Part shown: piece after piece, positions 2,044-39,912 of the stretch | Layout of the letters: every line of letters begins with the position of its first letter | Position numbering within the stretch: the stretch's first letter is position 1 | Virus record (IMG/VR): IMGVR_UViG_3300029957_000007 | Span: 32,001 to 96,000 of that record | DNA length: 64,000 bases | Reading direction: 5' to 3' (one strand) | DNA from: a virus | Position numbers and translations under genes: made by a program | The notes under the pieces: model-generated | The model's database searches: none | Told to the model about the DNA's origin: nothing | What the model saw: only the letters and a program-made list of their open reading frames with translations

Positions 2044-2799
2044 ATGGCATCCGCGATTCCGAGAGATAGGCTTCGTAAAGAAGCGATGAATTTCATCCCG
2101 GCAACAAGCGTTGGTAAGATCAATCGCTATGCTGGTGGTGGACATGGTGGTGGAGCCAATGTTCATGCGGAAGAGATTCCGATGATGGATGCTGCACAAT
2201 TAGCGAGGATGGAAGAAGATCAGATCCTCGAAGGCATCGAGGAATTCGCGGATGGTGATCCAAGGCATGGCTCTACGCACTTCAAAGCTTATTTCCAGAA
2301 GAGCGCTAGAGAGAATCAGATGCCTACTGACATGATGGAAGCTCTTGCTGAGGAGCAAGAACCTACACTCACACAGCAAGATCGTGGTGAAGATCAAGAG
2401 AGAGATGGATATGGTGATCTCGACACGACTCAGCAAGGTGAGAGCCCAGCGTCAGGTCATCGACCAGTTGCTGCTGGAAAGCTGAACTTCAAACAGCGAG
2501 TGTACATCGCTTCACTTGATGTCCTTGGTTCTGTGTACGAGGACAATGGGAACACTGTGACTGTGAAGACAGTTCACGGCAAGTGGATCGATGTAAGCAA
2601 GAAAGATGTTGAAGTGATCAATGCTGGTATCAACGATGGTGGAACTGGCACACCCACATTATCTCCTCGTAAAGTCAATCAAGAGGATGGCGATGGGGAA
2701 GTGCGAGATGAAGACAATGGTCAAGATTCAATGTCGGCTTTCAGTGAGCGACGCGTAGAAAGCGGGACCTATGCGGACAGGCGAAGAGCACGCCGCTAA
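2044..2799 (+). CDS. Acidic putative head/internal protein with an SH3-like module
   Basis: Acidic and disordered, with a beta-rich segment LNFKQRVYIASLDVLGSVYEDNGNTVTVKT; RBS gagga. Confidence 0.55.
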   Translation: MASAIPRDRLRKEAMNFIPATSVGKINRYAGGGHGGGANVHAEEIPMMDAAQLARMEEDQILEGIEEFADGDPRHGSTHFKAYFQKSARENQMPTDMMEALAEEQEPTLTQQDRGEDQERDGYGDLDTTQQGESPASGHRPVAAGKLNFKQRVYIASLDVLGSVYEDNGNTVTVKTVHGKWIDVSKKDVEVINAGINDGGTGTPTLSPRKVNQEDGDGEVRDEDNGQDSMSAFSERRVESGTYADRRRARR

Positions 2800-3661
2800 A
2801 CGTCGCCTAGCGTACATTGAGAATGAGTCATTAGCTCCAGACAATGATGATAGCTTTCTCTTTGAGCGCGATGTCGACAAAGTCGGACCAGAGAACATCG
2901 AGTTCGAAACACAATCGCAAGTTCCAGGCATCGACCAAGCACCCATCGAGAGAAAAGACAATCCCTTCAGGGAGCCTATTATGGGCAGTGAGAGAAACGC
3001 GTCAGAAGATGACGGTAGCTACAATGTCGGGGAGAAGCTCCTTGATGAAAAGACAGGTGAGATTTGGACTGTCAAAGAAGTGAATGGTGAGGATGAATGG
3101 CTTGATGCGACCTGTGGTGAGACAAAAGGTCAACCAAGAACACAGACATTCACCTTTGATCAGGCAGACAACATGCAGAGAACAGCATCAACAAGAGAAG
3201 CAAAGAAGGATTCGCTGGATCTTCTGAACGTGAAGAACAGAAAGGTGAAGCAACCTTTCGACACAGAAGAGAATCGTACCATGGTGGATCGCTCACCTGG
3301 TGATTCTCTTTTTGGCGATGATAAACAGACGCAAGGTCGCCACATCACGAACATGAAAGGTCCCGGTGGTCTCAAAACAGGAATGGTGAAGAAAGCTGAA
3401 TTGAACATTGGTGATGATGTACTCGTTGGTTCATCGACCTATAAGGTCGCTGAGATCAAGAGCAATGGCATCATCGCTCGTCATGCTTTCACTTCATCTG
3501 ATCATTTCTTCGACGCTCCTCAATTCAACAGAATTGCGGTGGCAGCTTTTGTACCGGGCGATGGCACGGTGCAAGAAGCCGAAGCACCGAAGTTGTTCTT
3601 TGAAGGCAGTGCTGAAGCTGGTCTATTTCCAATCGGTGGTGACGACACCATCCCAGAATGA
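2771..3661 (+). CDS. Acidic putative head/internal protein with two SH3/KOW-like modules
   Basis: YNVGEKLLD and LNIGDDVLV modules; linker motifs KRRLA, QRTAS, KKAE. Confidence 0.55.
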   Translation: MRTGEEHAAKRRLAYIENESLAPDNDDSFLFERDVDKVGPENIEFETQSQVPGIDQAPIERKDNPFREPIMGSERNASEDDGSYNVGEKLLDEKTGEIWTVKEVNGEDEWLDATCGETKGQPRTQTFTFDQADNMQRTASTREAKKDSLDLLNVKNRKVKQPFDTEENRTMVDRSPGDSLFGDDKQTQGRHITNMKGPGGLKTGMVKKAELNIGDDVLVGSSTYKVAEIKSNGIIARHAFTSSDHFFDAPQFNRIAVAAFVPGDGTVQEAEAPKLFFEGSAEAGLFPIGGDDTIPE

Positions 3662-4212: not shown

Positions 4213-5073
4213 ATGTCGTATCCTCCGTACAGCGGCACTACCAGCAAGCAGTTCAATGATGCGCCAATCAAGGCTTCCAACAACGGTGCCAACCAGTTGG
4301 CTTACCAGAAGTCGTTGATCTACTCAACGCCTGGTCTCGTCACCAATGTGACTGGCGTTGTGTTGAATTTCACTGGTCTGACGCTTGCTCAGATTCCACA
4401 ACCAGGTGCAAACGCTCTGGTGTACACCGCTTCAGGCACATTGCTGTCATGGAATGGTGGAGCTGGTGTGAACGTCGGTGCTGGTGGCACATTCGTGTTG
4501 ACCGGCCAAGATGGTCGTGTGATCAATGCCGTGGTCACAGCTGGTTCGCTGCCATCAGGCAACCAGACTGATTCGATCGTGGTGAGCAGCCCGATCAACA
4601 TCGACGACAAGCGTGTGGTTTACGCTGAGGCTGGTTTCAACCGCATCATGCAGTCAGCGCCTTGGGTGGATGTGAACAACACCCATGCTGGAACCTTCGA
4701 TACGGTGATGTCGAATGTCAACACCAACAAGATCACAAAGCAGCCTTCGAACATCACTGGCGTCGTGTTGAGCAATGATGGCATCGCTCTTGGCAGTCAG
4801 CTGGTTGTGGGTTCACACAGCCTCGCTTACACTGCTTCTGGAACGCTGCTCGCTGTTGATGGTGGCACTGGCGTGAATGTTGGCGCTGGTGGCACCTTCA
4901 CTCTCACGGCTCCGAATGGTTCCACTGTCAAGGCGATCGTCACTGCCGCCAACCTTCCAGTTGGCAATCAGTCAGACAGCGCTTTGACTGTCACTGCCTT
5001 CCCAACTCAAGCCCTGGTCAAGACAGACACGAGCTTGCGCAACAGCTTGGCCGCTGTTTACAACGCCCTTTAA
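4213..5073 (+). CDS. Putative virion structural/decoration protein with two tandem beta-rich domains
   Basis: Internal duplication YTASGTLL..GG.GVNVGAGGTF.LT; Gly/Thr/Val-rich; biased codon usage. Confidence 0.6.
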   Translation: MSYPPYSGTTSKQFNDAPIKASNNGANQLAYQKSLIYSTPGLVTNVTGVVLNFTGLTLAQIPQPGANALVYTASGTLLSWNGGAGVNVGAGGTFVLTGQDGRVINAVVTAGSLPSGNQTDSIVVSSPINIDDKRVVYAEAGFNRIMQSAPWVDVNNTHAGTFDTVMSNVNTNKITKQPSNITGVVLSNDGIALGSQLVVGSHSLAYTASGTLLAVDGGTGVNVGAGGTFTLTAPNGSTVKAIVTAANLPVGNQSDSALTVTAFPTQALVKTDTSLRNSLAAVYNAL

Positions 5074-5082
5074 GGATCACAC

Positions 5083-6282
5083 ATGCCAAGGATCGAACAA
5101 CCACGCTCACCGATCACTGGTGAGATCCTTACAGCTGATTCGCTCGAGATCGCTGCTCAAGAACACGGCATCGATCTCGCGTCTACATCAGTTGGGCGGA
5201 TGTTTGACATGGGTGTTGAGAAGCTTGCCGCCAAAAAGCGGCAAGCTTCTCTCACTCGTAAGCCGAAGCGCATTGCTGCCATCAAGAAACAAGCAGCTGA
5301 AGGTGATCCTATTCAGATCGAGTTCGAAGGCAAGATCTACACGGCGACTCCTGAACATGAAGGTGGTTACTACATCTTCAATGATGGATCTGGCCGTGAT
5401 GGTCTGTGCTTTGCTTATGACGACATCAGTCACGGAGTCGTTCAGATCTACGATTCTGGTGACGAAGTCGATCTGGCGAAGGTTATCAAAGAAGGTGCGC
5501 TCAAGCAGAAGGCTGACAATGGCTGGACGAAGACATACAACGATCCTGAAGTCGGTGACAGAGTCACTTTCGATCTCCATGGTGAGATGAAGGAAGGTAT
5601 CTGCACAGAGCCTTGGGATGAGTCTTCTGACTATTGCCGTGTGAAGACGAGCGATGGACAAGAGGAGATCGTCAACGTCAGTCAAGTGAAAGACGTCTTC
5701 GTCAAGACTGCTGGTTTGATGAGCGGCAATTTCAGCGAAGATCATGAAGAGGAAAACAAAGAGAATGAAGAACCAAAGTACGATCGCTATGAAGATGAGA
5801 ATGGCAAAGGTGGGAAGCCTATCACCGCAGCACTTCCGAATGGAATGCGTTTCTACAATGAAAAGAAGCAGAGCTATATGACGTTGGATCATAGCGACTC
5901 TGACTCATATACTTTCGCCTTAGACAGCGGAAGTATGTTGACATATACAAAGGAACAGTTCTCTGATCGCTTAAGAGATGGTATTGTCACAAAAGCTTCA
6001 ATGAAGCGTAAGGATGGAGCTACAATCACAGCTGCTCGTAAGATCACGATCAAATACAAAGGCGAGGAGATCGAAGCAAAACAAGGCTCGAATTCTGACG
6101 AATGGAACTTCAGCTACAATGGTCAGAAGCTTGGTTTGATCTTGGGTGAGGACGAAAAGGCTGGTGGCGTTGTCGATGAACAAGGCAATGAAGCTGGAAC
6201 TGCTCGTTTGATCTCACCATCGAACACATCAGAAGCTGCAAAGAGAACAGCTTACGCTGCAAAGCGTAGAGCCAGAGCTTAA
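5083..6282 (+). CDS. Acidic multidomain putative head protein with KR-x-A linkers
   Basis: KRQAS, KRIAA and KRTAY motifs; PEVGDRVTF SH3-like module. Confidence 0.55.
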   Translation: MPRIEQPRSPITGEILTADSLEIAAQEHGIDLASTSVGRMFDMGVEKLAAKKRQASLTRKPKRIAAIKKQAAEGDPIQIEFEGKIYTATPEHEGGYYIFNDGSGRDGLCFAYDDISHGVVQIYDSGDEVDLAKVIKEGALKQKADNGWTKTYNDPEVGDRVTFDLHGEMKEGICTEPWDESSDYCRVKTSDGQEEIVNVSQVKDVFVKTAGLMSGNFSEDHEEENKENEEPKYDRYEDENGKGGKPITAALPNGMRFYNEKKQSYMTLDHSDSDSYTFALDSGSMLTYTKEQFSDRLRDGIVTKASMKRKDGATITAARKITIKYKGEEIEAKQGSNSDEWNFSYNGQKLGLILGEDEKAGGVVDEQGNEAGTARLISPSNTSEAAKRTAYAAKRRARA

Positions 6283-8110: not shown

Positions 8111-9478
8111 TTGAAGCAGACTAAGATCGATGAGAAAAGCAAGGGTCTGATTCAAGACCTTGAGGAAGCCTTACTCACCAAACTCGAGAAGAATGGTAAT
8201 CCATTCGTCAAAGGGCTCGTTGATCAAGATACGATCACAGTCAATGATTTGACGAATGGAGTTCTTCAATCGTGTGAGGATAACTCAGTTGGCGTGAAGG
8301 AAGTGCTAGATGACTACCTTCAAAAGATCCGACTGAGAGCTAAAGAGCACGCTTTGAAGATGATTGGCAAGCCTAAAATCGCTGGTATTGTTCGTACTGC
8401 TGCCAGCAGTTTTGAGGACTCAGTCAATCAAGCTTTCGAAGCAATTGATGGTATCCCTGCAGAGATCGTTGAGAAGATCAAGGCCGAATGGCTTGAGTCA
8501 GGCGGCGAGAACAACATGATCCCTCAATTGATCAAGAAAGAATTGTCAGAGTTCAAAGATGAAGGCTTCAGCAAGAAGGAACTGCGTGAAGCGCTCTATG
8601 AACTCTGGGAAAAGCAGAAAACCGTCTACAAACGAATTGTGCGAACGACAACGATCAACGCATATGCTAAGTCACAGCTCGAAGAATGGGATGCACAAGG
8701 CATTGCTGAAGTGGAACGGCATTGTATTGATGATCACAGAACTTGTCAGATCTGTAGGATGCTGTGTGCACCTGGCCGTAATCGGTATACCATCAAAGAG
8801 TTGCTTGGCTTTGATGATCCGATTACTTATGCCTCACATCCTCAATGCAGAGACTTCTACACTCCAGTTGTTGATTGGCAATCACTCGACGAGTACTTCA
8901 CTGAGCCATTGGTTGATGTAGACGTCGACGATGCTGAGATCTCGAATCTTCCAACTTCACTGCAAGAGCAAGTTGAAGAGCTAAGCAAACGTGTTGATCT
9001 TGAAGGTGTGATTGAATTCGTGCCTGACATTGTCGACACAGTTGAATGGCAGGAAGATAGATTCAATGAGCATCGTGATGCTGGGTATGGACAACGTGAA
9101 GCATTGCAAATGGTTGAGATGGAGAAGGAAGATCTTCGCGGGACACTCATCACATATGAGAATCCTGAGAAGATGCTGATCTCTGGACAAGCCGTTGATG
9201 CTTCATCGTTTGCCTACAGCATGGTGGTCTCACAAGCTTCACAAGCTTGGAGAGATGCAGACAAAGGTGAGTGGCGCACTATGTACGAAGAACATCTCGC
9301 ACATGATCTTCCATTCATCACGTTCGATGCTGAACAGAACGCTGAAGCGTACTTTGTAGAATGCTTCATTGCATTCGTCACCAACCCATATAGGTTGCTA
9401 ACCATAGACGAAGAAGCCTACACAACCATGACGGAAGTGACTGGCAAGGACTTCTTCGAGTTAGGAGCTGTACGGTAA
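8111..9478 (+). CDS. Head morphogenesis protein (MuF/SPP1 gp7-like) with a C-terminal zincin-like extension
   Basis: RIVRTTTINAY, D.RTCQIC and HPQCR MuF motifs; directly after portal; TTG start. Confidence 0.75.
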   Translation: MKQTKIDEKSKGLIQDLEEALLTKLEKNGNPFVKGLVDQDTITVNDLTNGVLQSCEDNSVGVKEVLDDYLQKIRLRAKEHALKMIGKPKIAGIVRTAASSFEDSVNQAFEAIDGIPAEIVEKIKAEWLESGGENNMIPQLIKKELSEFKDEGFSKKELREALYELWEKQKTVYKRIVRTTTINAYAKSQLEEWDAQGIAEVERHCIDDHRTCQICRMLCAPGRNRYTIKELLGFDDPITYASHPQCRDFYTPVVDWQSLDEYFTEPLVDVDVDDAEISNLPTSLQEQVEELSKRVDLEGVIEFVPDIVDTVEWQEDRFNEHRDAGYGQREALQMVEMEKEDLRGTLITYENPEKMLISGQAVDASSFAYSMVVSQASQAWRDADKGEWRTMYEEHLAHDLPFITFDAEQNAEAYFVECFIAFVTNPYRLLTIDEEAYTTMTEVTGKDFFELGAVR

Positions 9479-27783: not shown

Positions 27784-27954
27784 ATGACACTCGTTCGCTA
27801 TGGCGTCAACAAAAGCGTGAAGAAGCCTGATCTTGCGTCAGATCTTCCTAGCACTGCTAAGAAGCACGTTGCTGAGGTCAAGCAAGCTGAACTGAAAGGA
27901 GATAAGCATGGCAAAGCCGCTGAACGACCTGCTGGCGAGCTTCGCAGAGGCTGA
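27784..27954 (+). CDS. Small basic hypothetical protein (56 aa)
   Basis: aggagg RBS plus ATG at 27784; read manually. Confidence 0.45.
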   Translation: MTLVRYGVNKSVKKPDLASDLPSTAKKHVAEVKQAELKGDKHGKAAERPAGELRRG

Positions 27955-29680
27955 GCAAAAAGTCGCTGACATGGCTCCTTCGGTGAACATGCCTCAGAAC
28001 GATTCGCTGCAGAACACGACTGGGATTGAGGATCATGACGATCAAGATCCCAATCACAAGATCGAAGAGTTCCGCGAGGATGCGCAGGACGAACCAACCA
28101 ATCTTCGTCGTAACGACTTAGATGAAGAGATCAAGCTCCTCGAAGCAGCGATCAAGAAACTCGCCGCGTACGTCCTGCAGACGAACGACCCGGACGCATT
28201 CATGATCTATAGGACAATCAAGCGATTGCTCACAGACATGAAGCTGAAAGAAAAAGCGGCAGCTGTTGATCTCGAGCAAGGTCGCTACGATCATGAATCA
28301 CAAGAACGCTATGGCTCGAAGAAGTTTAAGCGAGTTGCTTTCTTCAAGCCTGGGACGATGATCGACTTCAAGCACAACGATGAGATCTGGACTGGAACTG
28401 TCATTGGTAATGATGGCGTCATGTTGTTGGTTGATCATCCGCCGACAGATGCCGCTGGGCCAATGAAGGTCGATCCGTACTCAGTTGTCGATCATGGTGA
28501 AGAGGATGACGAAGCAGAAGAGGTTCTTGAGTACAACAAGAGGCAGGAACTTTTGGATTGGCCTGACCGCGATCATTTGTACGTTGGGTCTCGTCACTTC
28601 AATGCTGAAGAACTGTCTGACCTCAATGGCGAAGCTCAAACAGATAAGACGAAGGCTCCACAGCCAGTTGATATGCGAGCCAACTCACAGCATACACCAA
28701 CTGATTCGAATCCAAAGGCTTCAATCGGCATGAAGCGAAAAGCTGACATCACAGACATGCAAGGACAAGACATCGATGTTCATGACGTTGTTGAGTGGGA
28801 AGGAAAACAAGTTGAAGTTGTTGATGTGATGGACAGTGGGAACATCATGATCTCATACGACGACAAGCTTGTTGGTGTGCACCCTCAAGAGACAGTGAAA
28901 GTCGGCTTCTACAAGAAGTCAGAGAAATTCGTCAAAGCTTCATTGGCCAAGCGATTGGCCTATGATATTGGCGATGGTGCTGACATCAAAGATAAGGTAG
29001 ATCAGTTCCGTAACAGCGAGAAGAACGGCTCAGTCAAGACGGCTGAAGAGACGTTCAAGCACGGTGAAGTCGTCACCGTCGATGGTGAGAAATTCAAGGT
29101 CGTTCAGCAAGATCAAAACGGCGATCTCGATCTCATGGCCATTGATGACGACACAGACGTCATTACCGTCAATCCAAGTGAAGTCATCAGATCAGCATCA
29201 AAGAGGATTGCAATGAAGCGAACTGCGAACGACAAGCTGATGAAGCATGTCGACTTTGACGACATTTCCTGCGGTGTGGAATGGCCGAAGGATACAATGC
29301 GTCAATACAGCGATGGCTTCAAACAGCACATGAAATGCGATTATGGCTACGTTCGCAATTCGCTTGGCGATGATGGCGAAGATCTTGATTGCTACATCGG
29401 CGATCCGCAAACGCAGAAAGTACATCGCATCGATCAGTTGGTTCCAGAAACTGGAGAACATGACGAGTACAAGTACATGCTTGGATTCCCAGACACCAAA
29501 GCTGCTGTCGGCATGTATCTGCAACACATGCCGCTCGAGCATTTTGGTGGGTGTGATGAACTGAGCATGGATCAATTCAGACACATCGCTCGAACTGGTG
29601 ATGAGGAACTGCAACAGTACCAAGAACCAGTGAAGGAAGGCGCTGAAGACATTTCCCACATGGAAGGCGAAGGAGCTTAG
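27908..29680 (+). CDS. Multidomain polyvalent-type protein: SH3-like modules and a C-terminal InPase (inorganic pyrophosphatase-like) domain
   Basis: DYGYVRNSLGDDGEDLDCYIG...IDQ....G.HDEYKYMLGF matches the InPase pattern; KR-x-A linkers. Confidence 0.7.
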   Translation: MAKPLNDLLASFAEAEQKVADMAPSVNMPQNDSLQNTTGIEDHDDQDPNHKIEEFREDAQDEPTNLRRNDLDEEIKLLEAAIKKLAAYVLQTNDPDAFMIYRTIKRLLTDMKLKEKAAAVDLEQGRYDHESQERYGSKKFKRVAFFKPGTMIDFKHNDEIWTGTVIGNDGVMLLVDHPPTDAAGPMKVDPYSVVDHGEEDDEAEEVLEYNKRQELLDWPDRDHLYVGSRHFNAEELSDLNGEAQTDKTKAPQPVDMRANSQHTPTDSNPKASIGMKRKADITDMQGQDIDVHDVVEWEGKQVEVVDVMDSGNIMISYDDKLVGVHPQETVKVGFYKKSEKFVKASLAKRLAYDIGDGADIKDKVDQFRNSEKNGSVKTAEETFKHGEVVTVDGEKFKVVQQDQNGDLDLMAIDDDTDVITVNPSEVIRSASKRIAMKRTANDKLMKHVDFDDISCGVEWPKDTMRQYSDGFKQHMKCDYGYVRNSLGDDGEDLDCYIGDPQTQKVHRIDQLVPETGEHDEYKYMLGFPDTKAAVGMYLQHMPLEHFGGCDELSMDQFRHIARTGDEELQQYQEPVKEGAEDISHMEGEGA

Positions 29681-29681
29681 C

Positions 29682-30653
29682 ATGAAGCGCATTGAAGGTG
29701 AAGGTGGTGAAGGACAGAGTTCTCAATCTGTTCCTTATTCTTCTGAACATTGGAAAGAGCTGAAGGATCGTGGTCTCACTACCTCCACACCTTCGCCTTC
29801 GATGCGTCAAACTGACTACAAGCAAGTGAATGCAGGGGATAAGTTCACCAGCTTAATTGCTGGTGAACTTACCGTTGCTTCAGTCACTGGTGAGATCACA
29901 CACGTCGCTGACAAGAAAGGTCAGACGTTCATGGTCTCTACGGCGAGATTGAAAGAGCTCAAAGCCAAGCGTAGAAGCGTGAGCTTTAATATCGGTGTGA
30001 ATCACGGTATGGTCATGATCTCATCTGAAGACGATCGTGACTCAGACCTGTGGAGATCAATGTGCGAGATATTCAAACGCAATGGCTACACACCTGACAG
30101 CGGCTATACGATGTTCCAGAAGCTTGACACGAACATTGAAGACGAAACTGCAAAGCTGATCGCTGAGTTCGAGAAGGAAGGATACAAAGTTCATCAGGAT
30201 TCTAGCGGTGGATTGAACAGCACTTTCTACATCTACTTCGATTCTGAAGATGCTGAGAGAGCCGCATCAAAAAGGAAGATCGTTGCAGTAATGAAAGAAA
30301 AGACGAAGACGCTGGTCTTCGATTTCGATGGCACTATCACATCGGAAAATACCTTCCCTGAGATCGCCGATCCTAATGAAGAGATCGTTGCGTACATGGA
30401 AGAAGCGAAACAGCTTGGGTTTGAGATCATCATCCATAGCTGCCGAACATCGTCTGAGCTGAATGATCAGAGCACTGCTGCTGAGCAACTCAAAGCGATG
30501 ACTGACTACCTTGCACTGCACGATATTCCTTATGATGAGATCTGCACATCAGACAAGCCATTGGCCGTTGCTTACATCGACGACAAAGGCTGCAATGTGC
30601 TGGATGCGCAACGTCTTCGAAGCATCATTCATACTTCAAAGAGGATTCGATGA
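29682..30653 (+). CDS. Multidomain protein with a C-terminal HAD-family phosphatase
   Basis: LVFDFDGTI (DxD), IIIHSCR and KPLAVAYIDDK HAD motifs. Confidence 0.75.
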   Translation: MKRIEGEGGEGQSSQSVPYSSEHWKELKDRGLTTSTPSPSMRQTDYKQVNAGDKFTSLIAGELTVASVTGEITHVADKKGQTFMVSTARLKELKAKRRSVSFNIGVNHGMVMISSEDDRDSDLWRSMCEIFKRNGYTPDSGYTMFQKLDTNIEDETAKLIAEFEKEGYKVHQDSSGGLNSTFYIYFDSEDAERAASKRKIVAVMKEKTKTLVFDFDGTITSENTFPEIADPNEEIVAYMEEAKQLGFEIIIHSCRTSSELNDQSTAAEQLKAMTDYLALHDIPYDEICTSDKPLAVAYIDDKGCNVLDAQRLRSIIHTSKRIR

Positions 30654-33400
30654 GCAAGATCAAGACAACGGCTGATGCCGACAACTTCGATTTGACTGAA
30701 GGGATTTTGAACGACGCTCAAGTTGCTGCTTATGGCGAGCATGCGCCGAACAAGATCGATCAGCCGAATGATTTTGCTTCGCCAGGAGAAAAAGCTCCTG
30801 ATGGTTTCACAGCCTCAAGACGAGCTGCTGTGCGAACAAATGCCCCAGAAGAATTCAACAATGAAGATGAGCTGATCGACTACTTCACTGATGTCAATCG
30901 CACTGGCGATGCGTACATGGTGAGAGCGATCATTGATGGTGCCACCACCTACGTCAAGTACCAGCGGGATGGCAACGTCATCAAGCGTCAAGCCTCAAAG
31001 CGAACTGCTGAGTCCTATCGTGTCACGGTGGAAACTGAGAGCGGCACCGAAGAGAAGATCCGTATCCTCGATGCTACTTCAGAGGATGATGCGAAAGAAA
31101 AAGCAATGAAGCAATACAACAACTTAAAAGGTGTCATTAGCGTTGAGAAGGTAGCTTTTAAACGCACTGCTTCAGGCGACTACGAAGTTGGTGACATCTA
31201 CACCGATGTCAATGGCAACAAGTATACGATCAAGTCTTCAACAGAGGAATCGTCAGTTGCAGATGAGTATGATGAAGCCTTCTTCAAGGTGGAAGTCAAC
31301 CAAGCTGTTTTTTATGATGGTCCAAAAGTTGTTGACATGGAGATGAGTGAATCAGCGTTGGACGATCTTGGCTTGGTTCGAGTCGGTTCAAAGCGCACTG
31401 CTTCACGATACAAGGACTGGAATGGCAGAGAATTTGATGTGCTCAATGGCATCGAAGATGACGACACAGTCACCGTCAAGTACGTTGATGACGGCAGTGA
31501 ATCGAATGTCGATGCAAGGTCTCTCGCCAATTCGGTCAAAAAAGGAGACGTCGTGAAAGTCGCTTCAAAGCGCAAGGCTTCAATCGATAATGACGATGAG
31601 AGACAGAAATATCTTGCCTACATCAAGCATAACTTAGTCAGCTCACCGCCAAATGAGATCAAGAATGATCTGCGCAAAGATGGCCTCTCAGAAGAAGAGA
31701 TTAGCGGTCTCTTTGAAGAACTGAGAAACACTGTGACTGGTGCCAAAGGCATTCGTGTTGGCAAGCTTAAGCGCAAGGCGTCTTTTCAAGTTGGCGATCT
31801 TGTGAAGAACAAGATCGGTGAAGAAGGAAAAGTTGTTGAAGGTGATGAAGGCGATGGAATGGTTGGTGTTGATTTTGGTGGGCCAATTGAGCTTATCGAA
31901 GTCACCGACCTACAGGCGTGGAATCCTTCAGGAACCGAGAACGACGTTGACAGCTTCACGGAGAAGGGTACTTACGGTGTCAAGAGCAAGAACGCTCCAG
32001 ATCCTGAGGACGCTGCTCACTCAACTGATGTGGACTACATCGCTTCAAAGAGAACCGCTTCAATGTCTGTTGGTGATAAAATCACTGATGGTAATGGAGA
32101 AACGTTCATTATCACCGGCTTTGCAGATAATGGTCGTGTGCTGGGTACGATTGATGGAGAAGAAACAGAATTTACTGAGAAAGAGCTTTATAACAAAGTT
32201 CAGAATGGTGAAGCCACTCGAGTTACTGGTTCAAAGCGAACCGCTGCTAAGATCGAATGGAACAGTCAAACAATTTGGGCAACTCAAAACCCAGATGATG
32301 GCTCATATGAATTCGAATTTGGTGGTAAGGAGTTTTATCTGGAAGGTGACCAAGTCTACAGGGCTATAGATGGTTCACCAATTGGCACTGGTAAAGTGAT
32401 AGAAGCTTCAAAGCGAACAGCTTCATTCAAAGGTCAGCAAGTTGTTGTTGATGCTGAAGGTTTCAACTACGTCGAAGGTCTTGTTGCTGATGAAGGCACC
32501 ATTGAAGAGTTGATGCAACGCAACGATGCAGCTGCTGCTCAAGGCGATTCGCTGATCGATGATGGTATGGGCTTCGGTGCCGACACGCAAGCAGTGATCA
32601 TCAACACGGAAGAAGGTGACGTGCTTGTGCCTTCAGAATTTGTGAGACAGCAAGTTGAATCTGGCACAGTGGTCGGCCGTCTGTTCAAGAAAGCTGATGA
32701 ACAACCACAAATTGGCGATACTCTTGTCGATGCTGAAGGTCGCAAAGCTCGTGTTATTGCATTTGGAGATGATGGGTCAGTGGAAGTTGAAGGGCCAGAT
32801 GGCGAAACATATCACACTTGGCCAGATGGAGTGAAGATCATTAAACATAAAAATGTTGTTGATGCATCAACAAAACGCACCGCCAAAGGTTTCGGCATTG
32901 GTGACAAAGTGGAATGCGAGCAAGGCTTCGGTGTCGTGAAGGATATCGACTTCGATGGCGATGGCAATTCAATCTACACCATCTCGCTTGAAGGCGGCGG
33001 TGAAGATGATTACCAAGAAGGAATGCTTTCAAAAGCTGCTTTAAAACGTCTTGCTTCAGATGAATACGATTTTGAAGTCGGTGATCGATTCAGAGACAAA
33101 AACGATCTTGAATGGATTGTGATCGAGTCAACTGATAGCAACGATCCAAACGCTGACAATCGCATCGGATTGATGGAGCCACTCACTGGCACGAAGATTT
33201 ATCCTGATGCTGACAGCCTCGAAGCGAAGATCTCTTCTGGTGAGATGGTCAGAACATCAGCCAAACGTACAGCTGATGAAGCTCATGAAAAAGAAGAGAT
33301 GGGTGAGGAACAACGCATCAAGAAAGATCTGGAAGAGATCGATGAGATCATCGATCACATGTTCGATGCTGACTCTAAGCAAGTGAAAGGAGTTGAGTGA
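30650..33400 (+). CDS. 916-aa array of acidic SH3/KOW-like modules separated by KR-x-A motifs (putative head-packaged polyprotein)
   Basis: 11 in-frame KR[T/K/L]A motifs; repeated xxVGD modules. Confidence 0.65.
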   Translation: MSKIKTTADADNFDLTEGILNDAQVAAYGEHAPNKIDQPNDFASPGEKAPDGFTASRRAAVRTNAPEEFNNEDELIDYFTDVNRTGDAYMVRAIIDGATTYVKYQRDGNVIKRQASKRTAESYRVTVETESGTEEKIRILDATSEDDAKEKAMKQYNNLKGVISVEKVAFKRTASGDYEVGDIYTDVNGNKYTIKSSTEESSVADEYDEAFFKVEVNQAVFYDGPKVVDMEMSESALDDLGLVRVGSKRTASRYKDWNGREFDVLNGIEDDDTVTVKYVDDGSESNVDARSLANSVKKGDVVKVASKRKASIDNDDERQKYLAYIKHNLVSSPPNEIKNDLRKDGLSEEEISGLFEELRNTVTGAKGIRVGKLKRKASFQVGDLVKNKIGEEGKVVEGDEGDGMVGVDFGGPIELIEVTDLQAWNPSGTENDVDSFTEKGTYGVKSKNAPDPEDAAHSTDVDYIASKRTASMSVGDKITDGNGETFIITGFADNGRVLGTIDGEETEFTEKELYNKVQNGEATRVTGSKRTAAKIEWNSQTIWATQNPDDGSYEFEFGGKEFYLEGDQVYRAIDGSPIGTGKVIEASKRTASFKGQQVVVDAEGFNYVEGLVADEGTIEELMQRNDAAAAQGDSLIDDGMGFGADTQAVIINTEEGDVLVPSEFVRQQVESGTVVGRLFKKADEQPQIGDTLVDAEGRKARVIAFGDDGSVEVEGPDGETYHTWPDGVKIIKHKNVVDASTKRTAKGFGIGDKVECEQGFGVVKDIDFDGDGNSIYTISLEGGGEDDYQEGMLSKAALKRLASDEYDFEVGDRFRDKNDLEWIVIESTDSNDPNADNRIGLMEPLTGTKIYPDADSLEAKISSGEMVRTSAKRTADEAHEKEEMGEEQRIKKDLEEIDEIIDHMFDADSKQVKGVE

Positions 33401-33777: not shown

Positions 33778-34467
33778 ATGAAAGTTCAGACAAAGAAAGC
33801 TTTTATGACGATCATCCTCGCTTTGGTGCTCATGAATCTCACAACAGTATGCGTTATACTTGTTGTGCTTGATCGGAACACCAAAGCGCTGGAAGATGCA
33901 AAGGCTGAAGAAGTACTTGCACGAATTGGGGACAATAGGATGTTAAGGGCACGGAGTAACTTTGAACTGCCGGGCTTTACACCTACCCACCTCGAACGTG
34001 TCACGAGGAACGCTGACACGATGGGAATACCGTGGTGGGTACCAGCCGGTATTGCAAAGCACGAAAATGGAGGTGACACGCTCGAGGTTGGGATGCAAAT
34101 CATCCCAATGAACATCCGCATGAACACTCCAGTAATGGAGTGGCAGTACGTTGCACTCATGCGAATGCTCAACCAACAGGCGTGGAGAGTGATACTCTCT
34201 GACCCTGAACTTCTGCCGAAGGTCCTCATACCTTTCGCTCAGAACTACAAATCGTCTGACCCTCAACTGTGGCTGAAGCAAACCAACAATGCAATGATCG
34301 ACTTCAGAAGCAGAGAGGAGATCTCGAAAGTAGCACATGACACGGTGGTGTCTGATCCACCTTCACCTTCGAAGTTGAAGAAAAAGAAACCTTCGACTAA
34401 GAAGTTTCACAGGAAGTTTAGGATCAACCCTAAACTCAAACGAACACAAGGAGAAAACAAACAATGA
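33778..34467 (+). CDS. Membrane-anchored lytic transglycosylase/lysozyme-like protein
   Basis: N-terminal TM helix; GIPWWVPAGIAKHENGG...GMQI resembles the SLT motif with catalytic Glu. Confidence 0.5.
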   Translation: MKVQTKKAFMTIILALVLMNLTTVCVILVVLDRNTKALEDAKAEEVLARIGDNRMLRARSNFELPGFTPTHLERVTRNADTMGIPWWVPAGIAKHENGGDTLEVGMQIIPMNIRMNTPVMEWQYVALMRMLNQQAWRVILSDPELLPKVLIPFAQNYKSSDPQLWLKQTNNAMIDFRSREEISKVAHDTVVSDPPSPSKLKKKKPSTKKFHRKFRINPKLKRTQGENKQ

Positions 34468-35021
34468 AGAAGATTCTGCTGGCTTTGCTGATCGCCGCTA
34501 CCACAACCTTCGCTACCACCTCGTTGAAGGCCGATCAGGCCGTGACGACTGCCGCTGCCGTGGCTCCTGCCTCGGATCAGGTGCAGTTGGACGGCGCCAA
34601 GTTCGTCGATGGCAATTGGTTCCAGATCGCTGGGTTCACCGGCGATGTGTCGAACTACGGTGGCCCTGGTGACAGCACCATCACCGACCTGAAGAAGCAG
34701 CTGGACGACTATGCTGCTGCCAAGGCCAAGGCCGAGGGTGACGACAGCGACATCGCGAGCCGTGAGGATTGCGAGAAGTTGGCTGTTCGCTCAGCTGTTC
34801 GTGGCCAGTACGCCCTGGAAGTCGGTCGACTGTACGCCAAGGCTGGTGACACCGTCAAGGCGAAGGCTGCTTGGCTGCGAGCCTTGGCCTGGGGCAAGAC
34901 CGCAGTGAAGGCGACCTACGACACCGACAACGATGTGGAGAACGGCAAGATCGCTGATAACCAGAAGACCGGCGAGTTCGTGGTGAACACCGCCAAGCGT
35001 TGGTTGAAGAAGATCAAGTAA
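34464..35021 (+). CDS. Secreted helical (TPR-like) protein
   Basis: Signal peptide MKKILLALLIAATTTFA; GC-rich biased codons. Confidence 0.6.
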   Translation: MKKILLALLIAATTTFATTSLKADQAVTTAAAVAPASDQVQLDGAKFVDGNWFQIAGFTGDVSNYGGPGDSTITDLKKQLDDYAAAKAKAEGDDSDIASREDCEKLAVRSAVRGQYALEVGRLYAKAGDTVKAKAAWLRALAWGKTAVKATYDTDNDVENGKIADNQKTGEFVVNTAKRWLKKIK

Positions 35022-35482: not shown

Positions 35483-38359
35483 GTGTTACTGAGATATGCG
35501 AAAGCCAAGATAACACGAATCGCCTCGTGGGATGAGATCTTTATCAGAGACAGAAAGGTCAGAACAGCTTCCATCCTGGAAGACAAAGCACTTGATCGTA
35601 CCATTCAGATCAAGCCAATCGCATTGAACCCACAGAAGTATTTGTATGTTCAAGCGAGAGCAGTGAGTGGCGGTGAAGTACATGGTCCAAACGACAACGG
35701 CGACTACTTTCGTTGGGAGGAGCTGCAAGAACGGTACATGACGTTCATTGGAGCTGCTGTCAACATCGACCACAAGAACAACGCACCAGAATGGGCTTGT
35801 GGTATCATCATCGACGCACAACTCAATCCTGAACAATGGGTTGAGATCGTCATGGCTATCGATAAAGCAAAAGCAGAGAAGTTGTACCCTGGAGTCATCA
35901 AGAAAATTGAGGCTGGAGCTATCACAGACGTCTCAATGGGCTGCTTGGTAGAATGGTCGATCTGCTCAACTTGCTTGAGAACGAAGGCCGATGGCGATGA
36001 ATCGAAGCTTGTGCAGGGTCAAGGGCTTGCAATGGAGCCTGAAGATTATTGCGAGCATGTCGATGAAGATTCGCCTGCATTCTGTAAAGGAATGCCTGAT
36101 CCGGATGGAGAGATCTGCCATGAAGATAATCGTGGCGTGACCTTCTTTGAAGAGAGCATCATCACAACTCAAGGCGCAGATCCAGACGCCAAACTCGGAC
36201 AACGCTTTGCGTCTGTCAAGATCAACGAAAAAATTCGAATCGCTTCATTCGCTCCACCTCAGCACACACCTTCAGACAAGTCGGCATTAGCGCCGTACAT
36301 CAACTTTCGGTCACTCGACAATGTGCGACTTGCACATTTGAAACGGATCTCAAAAGGAGAAGATAGCATGGGTGCTGAGAAGAAGCCAGTGGTTGCTGCT
36401 GGTCCGGGGAATCCAACGGATACAGAGCAGGACAGAGGCGATTACGGCAAAGCCAGCGAGAAGGACAAGGCTCTCTTCGATCAAAGCAAGCAGAAGAGCC
36501 AGAAGGAAGACGAGAAGCGAGGCAATGAGGTGGAGACCATGATCGACCGTGGCGACTACACACTCGCTGCTTTGGCTGCAGTGCAAGTCCTTCGCAAAGC
36601 TGGTAAGGCCGATCCAAAGCTGATCGCTTCCCTGCTGCCACTCATCGCCTCGGAAGAGGAAGTTGAGAAGCCAGGCGAGAAGAAGGCTGATGAGGTCGAC
36701 ATGCACAAGGACAAGGCGAAGCCCGGTGAGGAAGAGGGCGTCGAGGAAGTCCCTGAGAAAAAGGAAGTCGGTGAGAAGCCAGGCATGGTTGAGAAGGGCG
36801 AAGAGGAATATGTCGAGCCAACAGCTGCCACTGCTGCTAAGAAAGATGTGAAGCTGAGCGGCAAGGATTCCAAGTTCGCTCAGGCCAAGGCTGTTTTGGC
36901 TGATGCAATGAGCAAAATTGGTGCCATCCTTGGCAATCCTTTAGAGACCGCAAAGGATGCTGGCGATTACGATGCTGGCGATGTGAACAAAGAGACCAAG
37001 TCAGTGGCTGACAGCAATGCTGGTGCCACTGAGAAAGAGAAGAAGGCGCAAGATGCCGCTGGCAATTCGACCAAAGAGGATCGTGAGAAACAGGTCGAGC
37101 TGGCCAAGCGTGCTGCTGCCAAACAGCGCAAAGCTGATAACGAAGACAAGAAAGTGGACTTCATCACGAGTGAGATGATGAAGGGCAAGAACTTCGACGA
37201 CTCCAAGCAAGAAGCTGATGAGCGCTATAAAGAAGACGAGACTCGTCAAGCCGCTGCTGAGCCAGAGATGAAGGACGGCACAGACAAGACGCAGAAGTCA
37301 CCAGCCACTGAAGACAAGGCTGAAGGCGAGAACAAGATGCAAGACAAAGAATTGGATCAAGAGAAAGCTGGTTCCTCAGTCGAGAAGCCTGAAGTCGAGC
37401 GAGAGATCGCTGCTGGCAAGAAGGTGAAAGCTGAGAGCACCGAAGAGGAAATGCAAAAAGGCACTGAAGAGACCAAGGACAGCAAGAAGGAAGCCGCTGC
37501 TGAAGAGGCTCCCGAGTCGAAGGAAGAGAAAGAGGTCGAAGGCGCCAAGGAAGAGAAATCCGAGAAGCCAGAGGAAGTGGTTGGGAAGCTCGACACCGCT
37601 GCTGCCGCCTTTGAGGACGAGGAGAAGAAGCTGAAGGAAGAGGCCGCAAACCTCGCCTCCCTCGGCCTGAAGGAAGAGGCGAAGCTGATCGTCAAGCGGA
37701 TCTCTTCACTTCAAGAGAAAGTCGCTGTGCTGAACAGCCTGGCGAACAAGATCGAGGACAACGGCAAGCGCGTTGCTTCGGTTGCGAACATTGCTCAGCG
37801 GAAGAAAGCGCTGGGTCAGTTCTCCATCATGGTCAAGAAGGCCTCGGTGATCCTGGCTGAGGTCTGCAAGGGCGATGATGAGGAGAAGAAGACGGTCGAG
37901 TCTTCGATGCAGAAGTCGGCTTCGGCCAAGCGGCTTGCTTCAGAGAATGCTCAACTGAAGGCCTCCCAATTGAAGCAGCAAGCGGCTATCCAGCGCATTG
38001 CTCGCTCTCAAGCGGTCTCCAGCCTGATCAAGATGGCGAAGGAGAAGGGGCTGATCGACGAGACACAGGTTGCGAGCACCATCGAACGCTGGTCTAAACT
38101 CTCGGATCCTGCTTTTGCCGAGATCAAGGCCCACTTCGCTGCTGCAAAGCCTGTTCGAGTGGCTGGTGTGCAGGGTCTGCGCAAGAATCTCCGTGAGGCT
38201 GCTGCGGGCTTGACCCGTGTCGCCAATGGAGAACTTGAAGGCGTGGAAGCTCCTGTGGCTGGCTTGATGAAGCAATCGGACCTTGACGAACAGCTGGCGG
38301 ACATGTTCATGGACGATGCTCGTGCCATGGGCAGCAAAGGACCCCGCGGAAGCTTCTAA
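35483..38359 (+). CDS. Prohead protease fused to a long acidic scaffold domain
   Basis: NDNGDYF, VNIDH (His), DVSMGC (Ser) and CSTC..CEH motifs, then a ~650-aa charged coiled coil; upstream of the MCP. Confidence 0.8.
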   Translation: MLLRYAKAKITRIASWDEIFIRDRKVRTASILEDKALDRTIQIKPIALNPQKYLYVQARAVSGGEVHGPNDNGDYFRWEELQERYMTFIGAAVNIDHKNNAPEWACGIIIDAQLNPEQWVEIVMAIDKAKAEKLYPGVIKKIEAGAITDVSMGCLVEWSICSTCLRTKADGDESKLVQGQGLAMEPEDYCEHVDEDSPAFCKGMPDPDGEICHEDNRGVTFFEESIITTQGADPDAKLGQRFASVKINEKIRIASFAPPQHTPSDKSALAPYINFRSLDNVRLAHLKRISKGEDSMGAEKKPVVAAGPGNPTDTEQDRGDYGKASEKDKALFDQSKQKSQKEDEKRGNEVETMIDRGDYTLAALAAVQVLRKAGKADPKLIASLLPLIASEEEVEKPGEKKADEVDMHKDKAKPGEEEGVEEVPEKKEVGEKPGMVEKGEEEYVEPTAATAAKKDVKLSGKDSKFAQAKAVLADAMSKIGAILGNPLETAKDAGDYDAGDVNKETKSVADSNAGATEKEKKAQDAAGNSTKEDREKQVELAKRAAAKQRKADNEDKKVDFITSEMMKGKNFDDSKQEADERYKEDETRQAAAEPEMKDGTDKTQKSPATEDKAEGENKMQDKELDQEKAGSSVEKPEVEREIAAGKKVKAESTEEEMQKGTEETKDSKKEAAAEEAPESKEEKEVEGAKEEKSEKPEEVVGKLDTAAAAFEDEEKKLKEEAANLASLGLKEEAKLIVKRISSLQEKVAVLNSLANKIEDNGKRVASVANIAQRKKALGQFSIMVKKASVILAEVCKGDDEEKKTVESSMQKSASAKRLASENAQLKASQLKQQAAIQRIARSQAVSSLIKMAKEKGLIDETQVASTIERWSKLSDPAFAEIKAHFAAAKPVRVAGVQGLRKNLREAAAGLTRVANGELEGVEAPVAGLMKQSDLDEQLADMFMDDARAMGSKGPRGSF

Positions 38360-38943: not shown

Positions 38944-39912
38944 ATGGATCCGAGAATGTCACGTGCCATGCAGGCTTTCGCTTCGGCTTACAACGGCGAC
39001 CCTGCTACTGCCGGCAAGCACCCCGGCCAGGTGAGCTCTGAGAAGCGTGAGGCTGCCAAGCGCATGCATCTTCGTCGTGAGGCTGCTCTCACCCAGGCTC
39101 TGCAAACCGAGGCTGGTCTGAAGCGCATCGCCGCGAACATGTCGAACCCTGTCCGCTTCAAGTTGGACTACAAAGGGATCTTCCGCAAGTTCGTCATTGT
39201 GGAACAGATGCCCGATGGCGTCCCGCTGATCTGGGACAAGGATCAGCCGCTGGCTCCTGCCGTGAAGGTCGGCAAGGGCGGTTCACCTCGCATGATCGAG
39301 ATGCGAGGCAAGCGTGTGGAGCTCCAGGCCTTTGAGATCGCCAGCCGTGTGAAGGTTCCTTACGAGGAGCTGTTCACTCGCCGGTACAGGGCCCTGGATC
39401 GTGCCAAGGATCGTCTGATCGAAGGCATGGAGCTGCGTGAGGATCTGATCGGCTTCTCGCTGATCGAGACCGCGAGCTCCCTGGTTAACACCCCGGTGGT
39501 GACGGCCGGTGCTTTCGACCGTGATCTGCTGGCCAAGATGTTCGTGCAAGTGGAAGCCAATCGCTTGCCTGTTGCGACGGTTCTGATGTCGCCATACGGC
39601 ACGATGGGCATCCGTCGTCTGCAGTTCCAGAACCTGGACCAGGTCGGCATGCAGGAAGTCCGGGAGACCGGGTACCTCGGCAACATGTGGGGTGCTGACT
39701 TCTACGTGTCAGATCAGATCCCGGCTGGTACGGCTTACGCCTTCACCGGTCCAAAGTTCTTCGGCTGGATGCCGATCCGCAAAGACACCGACGTCATCCC
39801 TGCTGATGACCCGGACAATCTGCGCCTCGGCTTCGTCGGCTATGAGCTCCTGGCCATGACGATCTTCAACGCCCTGGGCGTGGTGAAGGGCAGCTTCAAC
39901 ATCGCTGCCTAA
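38944..39912 (+). CDS. Major capsid protein (HK97 fold)
   Basis: 322 aa; P.R.KLDY.G..RK..VEQ.P.G, FEIASRV and GYLG.MWGA motifs; strongest codon bias in the window. Confidence 0.88.
   Translation: MDPRMSRAMQAFASAYNGDPATAGKHPGQVSSEKREAAKRMHLRREAALTQALQTEAGLKRIAANMSNPVRFKLDYKGIFRKFVIVEQMPDGVPLIWDKDQPLAPAVKVGKGGSPRMIEMRGKRVELQAFEIASRVKVPYEELFTRRYRALDRAKDRLIEGMELREDLIGFSLIETASSLVNTPVVTAGAFDRDLLAKMFVQVEANRLPVATVLMSPYGTMGIRRLQFQNLDQVGMQEVRETGYLGNMWGADFYVSDQIPAGTAYAFTGPKFFGWMPIRKDTDVIPADDPDNLRLGFVGYELLAMTIFNALGVVKGSFNIAA

Follow-up and report, generated by a model that had tools for sequence, protein, structure and literature searches.

A possible polyprotein of small acidic modules, punctuated by a basic tag that also marks the capsid protease, in the head gene block of an uncultured phage

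We analysed a window of 64,000 nucleotides, bases 32001-96000 of the 122,758-bp IMG/VR record IMGVR_UViG_3300029957_000007, which is estimated to be 76% complete and comes from an uncultured phage with a genome of about 160 kb. Nearly all genes of the window are on the + strand. The subject of this work is an open reading frame (ORF) of 916 codons at 30650-33400, whose product, P0001, is punctuated by short basic motifs, hereafter the tags. In the gene order of the window, this ORF is surrounded by a head morphogenesis block, and it is on the same strand as the genes for the portal (6357), a MuF-like minor head protein (8111), a prohead protease fused to a scaffold (35483) and the major capsid protein (38944). 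The gene is encoded in the head morphogenesis module with the head genes, and we judged it to be co-transcribed with them. The ORF is intact, with an AAGAGG ribosome-binding site and an ATGA start/stop overlap with each neighbouring gene, and the protein carries a net charge of about -76. A full HMMER scan of 1.84 billion representative proteins returned four relatives of P0001, named P0002 to P0005, of 717-1279 amino acids (aa). The features of the gene are listed with their coordinates in the window and their residues in P0001:

30650-33400, + strand: ORF of the putative polyprotein P0001 (916 aa, 100 kDa, isoelectric point 4.5)
30650-30829, + strand: aa 1-60, a conserved leader with SRRAA, the first site, at its C-terminal end; the only part common to all five family members
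30983-31009, + strand: double site KRQA-S-KRTA, aa 112-120
31160-31171, + strand: KRTA, aa 171-174, followed by Ser and a YEVGD module
31391-31402, + strand: KRTA, aa 248-251, in a low-confidence gap of the model ahead of the folded module 252-296
31568-31579, + strand: KRKA, aa 307-310, with a beta module before it and the three-helix module 311-364 after it
31769-31780, + strand: KRKA, aa 374-377, followed by Ser and an FQVGD module
32048-32059, + strand: KRTA, aa 467-470, N-terminal flank of a module shared with P0003 (KKKA there)
32234-32245, + strand: KRTA, aa 529-532, flanking the same module on its C-terminal side
32411-32422, + strand: KRTA, aa 588-591, after the best-predicted beta module, 533-586
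32687-32695, + strand: degenerate LF-KKA-D, KKA at aa 680-682, followed by a PQIGD module
32873-32884, + strand: KRTA, aa 742-745, followed by a GFGIGD module shared with P0004
33044-33055, + strand: KRLA, aa 799-802, followed by Ser and an FEVGD module
33263-33274, + strand: KRTA, aa 872-875, ahead of the acidic C-terminal helix 876-916

An earlier note on this DNA had counted 11 in-frame K-R-[T/K/L]-A motifs in the ORF, eight of them KRTA and seven followed by Ser; all were found where it had placed them. Three further sites came to light, namely KRQA at 30983, then SRRAA at aa 56-60 (30815-30829), aligned with GSKRTA of a homologue, and the degenerate LFKKAD at aa 678-683, which reads LFKKKAD or VVGxLFKKKAD in homologues. 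The spacing of 54-93 aa claimed in the note holds for most tags, with one gap of 154 aa, and it is this gap that LFKKAD splits. A frequency of KRxA no higher than in shuffled sequence would, according to the note, have spoken against its reading; here 12 copies were observed against 0.25 expected, with a maximum of 4 in 20,000 shuffles. The extended consensus in P0001 is [AG]-S-K-R-[TK]-A-[S]. P0001 consists of a leader of about 56 aa and then about 12-14 small modules, almost all of them acidic; cleavage behind the Ala of each site would yield products of 41-154 aa (4.8-16.5 kDa), all but one acidic.

The tags are alike as peptides and differ as DNA. Among the 12 copies, synonymous codons vary at every position (AAG/AAA for Lys, CGT/CGC/CGA/AGA for Arg, ACT/ACC/ACA for Thr and GCT/GCC/GCG for Ala), and selection therefore acts on the peptide and not on a DNA repeat. 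A DNA-level repeat or recombination box at the tags was considered and rejected, as the codons differ between copies. The suggestion in the earlier note that selection bears on the linker is thus borne out by a tag conserved at the peptide level with varied codons, next to modules that are 20-30% identical or unrelated.

The modules themselves are diverse. The module starts reported before (YEVGD, FQVGD, MSVGD, FGIGD and FEVGD) are present, and PQIGD is an additional one. All-against-all comparison and a hidden Markov model (HMM) showed that the six modules with an xVGD-type start are weakly but detectably related, and two more match the HMM marginally; outside P0001, the HMM matched only the neighbouring protein encoded at 27908, and it gave no matches in the related loci. 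Searches of Pfam and PHROGs with the whole of P0001 and with single modules returned nothing significant, the best being Tudor_RapA (E 0.065). A single-sequence AlphaFold model of P0001 is poor, with a mean predicted local distance difference test (pLDDT) of 43, and the segments that fold in it are aa 252-296, 311-364, 533-586 and 688-725; the tags fall in the low-confidence gaps between folded modules. Whole-chain fold searches (Foldseek, VIA wide and ESM Atlas) gave sub-threshold matches only. Among them, aa 680-730 matched a designed SH3 domain (Z 4.7, root-mean-square deviation (rmsd) 1.6) and the LBR Tudor and NusG KOW domains (Z 4.5), where the noise level is Z 8. Foldseek matched the PHF20 Tudor domain with a probability of 0.98 and E 0.38, and the ESM Atlas neighbours were SPT5 KOW arrays and Tudor proteins with a template modelling (TM) score below 0.3. 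In the model, aa 311-369 form a three-helix bundle and aa 121-178 resemble a beta-grasp. The description of the chain as an array of SH3-like modules was therefore kept in part: about eight small beta-type segments have weak Tudor/SH3/KOW matches (Z 4.5-5.4, below noise), but the label is too uniform for a chain with one three-helix bundle, one beta-grasp-like module and ends made of a conserved leader and an acidic helix. An SH3-like label plausibly fits part of the chain, not all of it.

What is kept and what is exchanged can be read from the relatives. A word-index protein search found one of the four, and the full HMMER scan found them all; tblastn of P0001 against 50,697 phage records gave no match, and a search for related loci with the family alignment recovered none among viral contigs or metagenome contigs. 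All five family members share the N-terminal leader (about 55 aa) and little else in fixed order. Each of P0002-P0005 is significantly enriched in [KR][KR]xA at a spacing of 55-220 aa, with GSKRTA as the flavour of the tag in P0002 and AS-x-KKKA in P0003-P0005. The first site lies right behind the leader, at aa 57-58, in three of the five (P0001, P0002 and P0005). The modules between the tags differ or are reordered among the relatives: aa 467-532 of P0001 are 61% identical to aa 221-286 of P0003, the former flanked by KRTA on both sides and the latter by KKKA, and P0004 has the GFGIGD module as well. On contig L002, which encodes a capsid protein 87% identical to that of the window, a partial homologue uses RRKA, KRKA, KKKA and RKKA. 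As read from these alignments, the tag is retained through module exchange and its flavour goes with the phage lineage, not with the module. A lineage-bound tag of this kind would be expected of a site read by a lineage-specific factor, and the conserved leader is a candidate loading signal.

The tags are concentrated in the head locus. The enrichment of the motif in head over other proteins, put forward in the note as a check, was found: 26 of the 31 KRxA in the genome are in five head-locus proteins, namely those encoded at 5083 and 27908, P0001, the protease-scaffold fusion and the capsid protein. The broader form [KR]xAS, suggested by the relatives, occurs nine times in P0001 (0.55 expected) and eight times in the protease-scaffold fusion (1.24 expected), and the remaining 173 ORFs hold 17 against 17.3 expected. 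With a matrix built from the P0001 sites, the best match outside was ASAKRLASE at aa 813-821 of the scaffold (17.6 bits), followed by sites in the proteins encoded at 27908 and 5083. These two tagged neighbours are:

27908-29680, + strand: 590-aa head-locus protein with KRxA at 28328, 28733, 28949, 29201 and 29216
5083-6282, + strand: four KRxA (0.16 expected) in a 399-aa protein encoded just ahead of the portal gene

In the 590-aa protein, two modules are of the P0001 type, and an InPase domain at the C-terminus (aa 445-559, E 2e-23) sits directly behind SASKRIAMKRTA, a double tag site.

The predicted reader of the tag is encoded downstream of P0001, with the following features:

35483-38359, + strand: 958-aa prohead protease-scaffold fusion, with a PHROG match and 36% identity to gp19 of Bacillus phage G
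35516-35572, + strand: two R-x-A-S sites, RIAS at aa 12-15 and RTAS at aa 27-30, in the disordered N-terminus before the fold
35627-36214, + strand: protease fold of the assemblin/T4 gp21 type, aa 49-244, with invariant H97 and S151
36203-36247, + strand: two R-x-A-S sites, RFAS at aa 241-244 and RIAS at aa 252-255, at the C-terminal edge of the fold
37766-37942, + strand: four [KR]xAS between aa 763 and 820 of the scaffold tail, ASAKRLAS (aa 813-820) among them

The sole sequence-family match of the N-terminal part is PHROG 18299, head maturation protease (E 9e-11); we found no sequence link to Pfam (E up to 10) or, with a profile, to entries of the PDB, and none that would place it in families S77 or S78. 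An AlphaFold (AF2) model of the protease from an alignment of 16 sequences had a pLDDT above 90 over most of aa 50-240. Its first 38 structural matches (Foldseek, VIA) are all herpesvirus assemblins or T4 gp21, with Z from 11.0 to 7.4; the protease of varicella-zoster virus (VZV; 1vzv) scored Z 11.0 (rmsd 2.7, 118 residues aligned) and gp21 (5jbl) Z 10.1 (rmsd 3.6, 132 residues aligned), and the first unrelated fold appears at Z 6.9. H97 and S151, the latter in D-V-S-M-G, are invariant in that order among the 16 relatives and form a putative catalytic pair; their spacing of 54 residues resembles that of gp21. The protease clade is a distinct sequence family that shares the assemblin/gp21 fold, and the analogy with the Ala|Ser cleavage of assemblin drawn in the earlier note thus has a structural basis. 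L002, phage G and the majority of the 16 aligned relatives have kept the site that follows the fold, GADxxAKI-x-[KR]-hydrophobic-A-S. Scans of Pfam and PHROG families recognised no second protease in the head locus.

For both the protease and the capsid protein, the closest cultured relative is Bacillus phage G, with 36% identity each, and cluster C mycobacteriophages are more distant relatives. Across the first 36 annotated proteins of phage G (L003, NC_023719.1 1-30000; terminase to gp39), [KR]xAS occurs 14 times against 3.8 expected: three times in gp4, four in gp7, twice in the portal gp14, twice in the protease gp19 and once each in gp11, gp12 and gp38. Both sites of gp19, EKVAS and LKIAS, are right behind the protease fold, and RKMAS is a site of gp14. 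A multi-omics paper on phage G holds no cleavage data. In several other relatives, the protease forms the N-terminal head of a fusion protein of 1,500-2,200 aa with repeated K/R-x-A-S. The giant fusions are:

L004:9920-14494
L012:1104-6002
L014:8231-14170
L015:9836-15433
L016:10001-16684
L017:3190-9129
L019:10001-15691

In an unbiased scan of patterns defined at three of four residues, applied to nine protease-fusion proteins of relatives, K.AS was one of the top-ranked patterns without cysteine, at 35 occurrences where 7.2 were expected (z = 10). In L004, a small xIGD module is directly behind the protease, and cargo modules and protease can therefore share one polypeptide. A separate observation concerns L016:10001-10780, where a Hint/intein-like insert (Pfam Hint_2, E 1.5e-6) follows the conserved EYC segment within the catalytic domain of the protease.

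The tagging of the capsid protein is weak:

38944-39912, + strand: major capsid protein, with KREA at aa 34-37 (39043-39054) as a weak candidate propeptide site

The capsid proteins of the window, L002, L004 and L012 have an N-terminal extension of about 37 aa that is missing from the phage-G-like ones and that, in the window, includes KREA, and three of the four have a basic-x-A motif near its junction. These features weakly suggest that the extension may be a propeptide. As a separate matter, in L002, the closest relative, the major capsid gene (L002:5613-7652) is split after the residue matching aa 157 by an insert of about 970 bp. The insert carries a 287-aa ORF with a match to Pfam DUF7487 (E 7e-13) and a weak likeness to DUF559/Vsr-like endonucleases, and it is probably an intron with a homing endonuclease.

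The linker [AG]-S-K-R-x-A-[S] is most likely recognised by the capsid-maturation protease that the phage itself encodes, and on balance we lean towards P0001 being a head-loaded polyprotein that this protease dices. The cleavage proposed in the earlier note agrees with the data in so far as the motif behaves as a head-protease site, is kept in four relatives while the modules are exchanged and flanks the protease fold itself. The uncut chain would be built into the prohead, possibly by way of the leader. The protease would release itself at the R-x-A-S sites on either side of its own fold, with trimming of the scaffold tail, and would then dice P0001, the 590-aa InPase protein and the 399-aa portal-adjacent protein into separate small proteins. 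The fate of the freed fragments is the least certain step: they could be retained with the DNA as cargo that enters the host, in the manner of T4 IPI*, or they could be disposable core material. We favour injected cargo because the module content is mosaic and fast-changing and because the InPase domain is right behind a double tag in the 590-aa protein. That the fragments are packaged in the capsid, retained and ejected, we purely infer.

A bolder version of this reading, which we put forward tentatively and hold to be doubtful as a whole, is that of a cargo cassette array. One leader would load at least a dozen mini-proteins; an undescribed [K/R]-x-A|S protease of the assemblin fold, from a clade that includes megaphage G, would dice them; and the acidic products of 5-16 kDa would be injected as a swappable set for anti-defence or host takeover, with new cassettes gained at the tag boundaries.

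Several points weigh against cleavage of P0001 as we describe it. The scissile bond, predicted to follow Ala in [K/R]-x-A|S, is placed there solely by the analogy with assemblin and by the invariant Ala, and Ser follows Ala in only seven of the 11 KRxA counted in the note (eight of 13 when KRQA and RRAA are included). The linkers are short, with about six residues between strand ends, such that access for the protease is assumed. The leader found in the P0001 family has no similarity to the starts of the tagged head proteins encoded at 5083, 27908, 2771 and 29682. Several of the nine fusion proteins of the pattern scan are interrelated, and their counts are not independent. The capsid protein shows a weak enrichment of tags, and its KRIA at aa 60 was rejected as a cut site, as it is in a conserved core segment that is probably left uncut and the capsid protein of phage G starts upstream of it.

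The rival that survives best, although we consider it unlikely, is that P0001 stays uncut as a beads-on-a-string internal or accessory head protein, in which the K-R linkers would be hinges touching packaged DNA or an acidic partner and the acidic modules would be spacers. The linkers are indeed basic, about six residues long and abutting the strand ends of the modules, in a protein that is otherwise strongly acidic. The note had offered linkers that bind DNA as its own alternative, and this was weakened by our results: DNA binding leaves unexplained why Ala is invariant and Ser frequent, why R-x-A-S is found at either edge of the protease fold, with conservation as far as phage G, and why the flavour around a conserved module is lineage-specific; a net charge of about -76 is also odd for a DNA binder.

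Somewhat less probable still is that P0001, although cut by the prohead protease, is a disposable filler of core or scaffold, whose acidic fragments leave before packaging, like the peptides of T4 gp22, gp67 and gp68, and have no role in the host. The place of the gene among head genes, just upstream of the scaffold-protease, suits this idea, as do fragments of 5-10 kDa, small enough for escape, and the precedent of T4 core proteins degraded to peptides that leave the prohead (PMC9958956). A structural filler would not be expected to swap whole folded modules between close relatives and keep only leader and tags, and the tagged 590-aa neighbour has an enzyme domain typical of injected polyvalent proteins.

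We regard as improbable that the tags are cut by another enzyme, from the host or the phage, or serve for docking or sorting instead of cleavage; the [K/R]-x-A|S code of the protease clade is, for its part, a prediction, but no second protease was recognised in the head locus, and the tag brackets the fold of the prohead protease itself and marks the scaffold fused to it. Least probable is that the tag is a relic, without function today, of an ancestral module duplicated in tandem. A weak relatedness and the xVGD start do link six modules, but modules are 20-30% identical or have unrelated folds beside a near-identical tag peptide with varied codons, and in four other phages, as well as in other proteins, the tag sits next to modules that are not homologous.

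The reading that we favour, a head-loaded chain that the capsid protease dices, combines known ingredients, namely internal head proteins processed by a protease of the assemblin fold and the polyvalent proteins of phages. In T4, each internal protein has a separate gene, a targeting sequence of about 10 aa and a single cut after Glu (L/I-x-E). Unlike these, P0001 has about a dozen modules in one frame behind one leader, its predicted code is [K/R]-x-A|S, and it is known here from its sequence; its predicted fragments of 5-16 kDa are within the range of IPI*. The T4 proteins IPI, IPII, IPIII and Alt are small, non-essential core proteins that are loaded into the prohead and trimmed by the assemblin-fold gp21 at a short three-residue code; the internal proteins are retained with the DNA, and IPI* is injected and counters host defence (PMC9958956). 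The proteases gp175 of phiKZ and gp245 of SPN3US read one motif common to many head proteins (portal, capsid and abundant ejection proteins), some with several copies, and also cleave themselves; in SPN3US the motif is A-x-E, cut after Glu, with multiple sites in N-terminal propeptides that are removed (PMC10052503). P0001 differs from such propeptides as a chain of about a dozen independent modules.

Like the herpesvirus assemblin precursor, ORF 35483 encodes a protease fused in frame to a scaffold, with sites at the C-terminal edge of the fold and toward the C-terminus of the scaffold; by analogy, this arrangement would mirror the herpesvirus release and maturation sites. The herpesvirus consensus is V/L-x-A|S, with Ala at P1 and Ser at P1', and assemblin-fold proteases read short P3-P1 codes, with which [K/R]-x-A|S fits. 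The likeness is at the level of the fold only (Z 8-11, 8-14% identity), and the P3 residue predicted in the phage is basic, not hydrophobic. We know of no cargo polyprotein in herpesviruses.

Polyvalent proteins of phages and conjugative elements are multi-module, mosaic proteins encoded beside packaging or head genes, for which packaging, delivery along with the DNA and processing into separate units are predicted, and InPase is one of the domains of phage polyvalent proteins predicted to be packaged in the virion (PMC5512222). P0001 shares with them the context of virion genes and the mosaic architecture, and its neighbour carries InPase. A polyvalent protein is defined by enzymatic or effector domains that can be recognised and usually has a zinc metallopeptidase of its own, whereas the modules of P0001 are mini-domains of 55-90 aa without a family match. 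Pfam and PHROG scans detected no such metallopeptidase, either in P0001 or elsewhere in the head locus, and P0001 is predicted to be processed by the capsid protease instead.

The polyprotein strategy is textbook knowledge for RNA viruses, and the literature that we searched does not describe it for the cargo of phage heads; nor did we find in it a K/R-x-A|S code of phages, or a single frame in which one leader precedes about a dozen mini-modules. Should the tags be cut sites, tailed phages would load many small proteins into the capsid from one gene by means of true polyproteins. A whole clade of phage capsid proteases would then have a herpesvirus-like Ala|Ser specificity with a basic P3, which would make the link between assemblins and phages firmer at the level of the substrate code; the annotation of mature virion proteins in the clade would gain a simple rule. 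The predicted code is directly testable in a cultured member, Bacillus phage G. The mosaic mini-modules would moreover be a compact source of candidate injected anti-defence proteins.

The rest of the head block includes the following genes:

6357, + strand: portal
8111, + strand: MuF/SPP1-gp7-like minor head protein, after the portal
29682-30653: HAD-phosphatase-like protein (PHROG 1238, E 2e-19, aa 192-306), between the InPase protein and the putative polyprotein

About 18 kb of small genes separate the minor head gene at 8111 from the 590-aa gene at 27908, four small ORFs are between P0001 and the protease-scaffold gene, and a 161-aa ORF is between the latter and the major capsid gene. In the HAD-phosphatase-like protein, AASKRK is directly ahead of the HAD domain and may be a degenerate tag. 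A 296-aa protein encoded at 2771-3661 has looser tags (ERNAS, QRTAS and VKKAE), followed by module starts of the xVGE/xIGD type, and appears to be part of the same tagged set of the head region.

In the interval between P0001 and the protease gene (33778-35021), two small ORFs start with a hydrophobic segment, which is unusual within a head module; the first (MKVQTKKAFMTIILALVLMNLTTVCVILVVL) is membrane-anchor-like and the second (MKKILLALLIAATTTFATTSLKA) signal-peptide-like, and Pfam gave no match for either. A 286-aa protein without a PHROG match (4213-5073), encoded a short way upstream of the portal and of the tagged 399-aa protein, is made of two clear repeat halves, in which …YTASGTLL…GG.GVNVGAGGTF.LT…VTA..LP.GNQ.DS… occurs twice.

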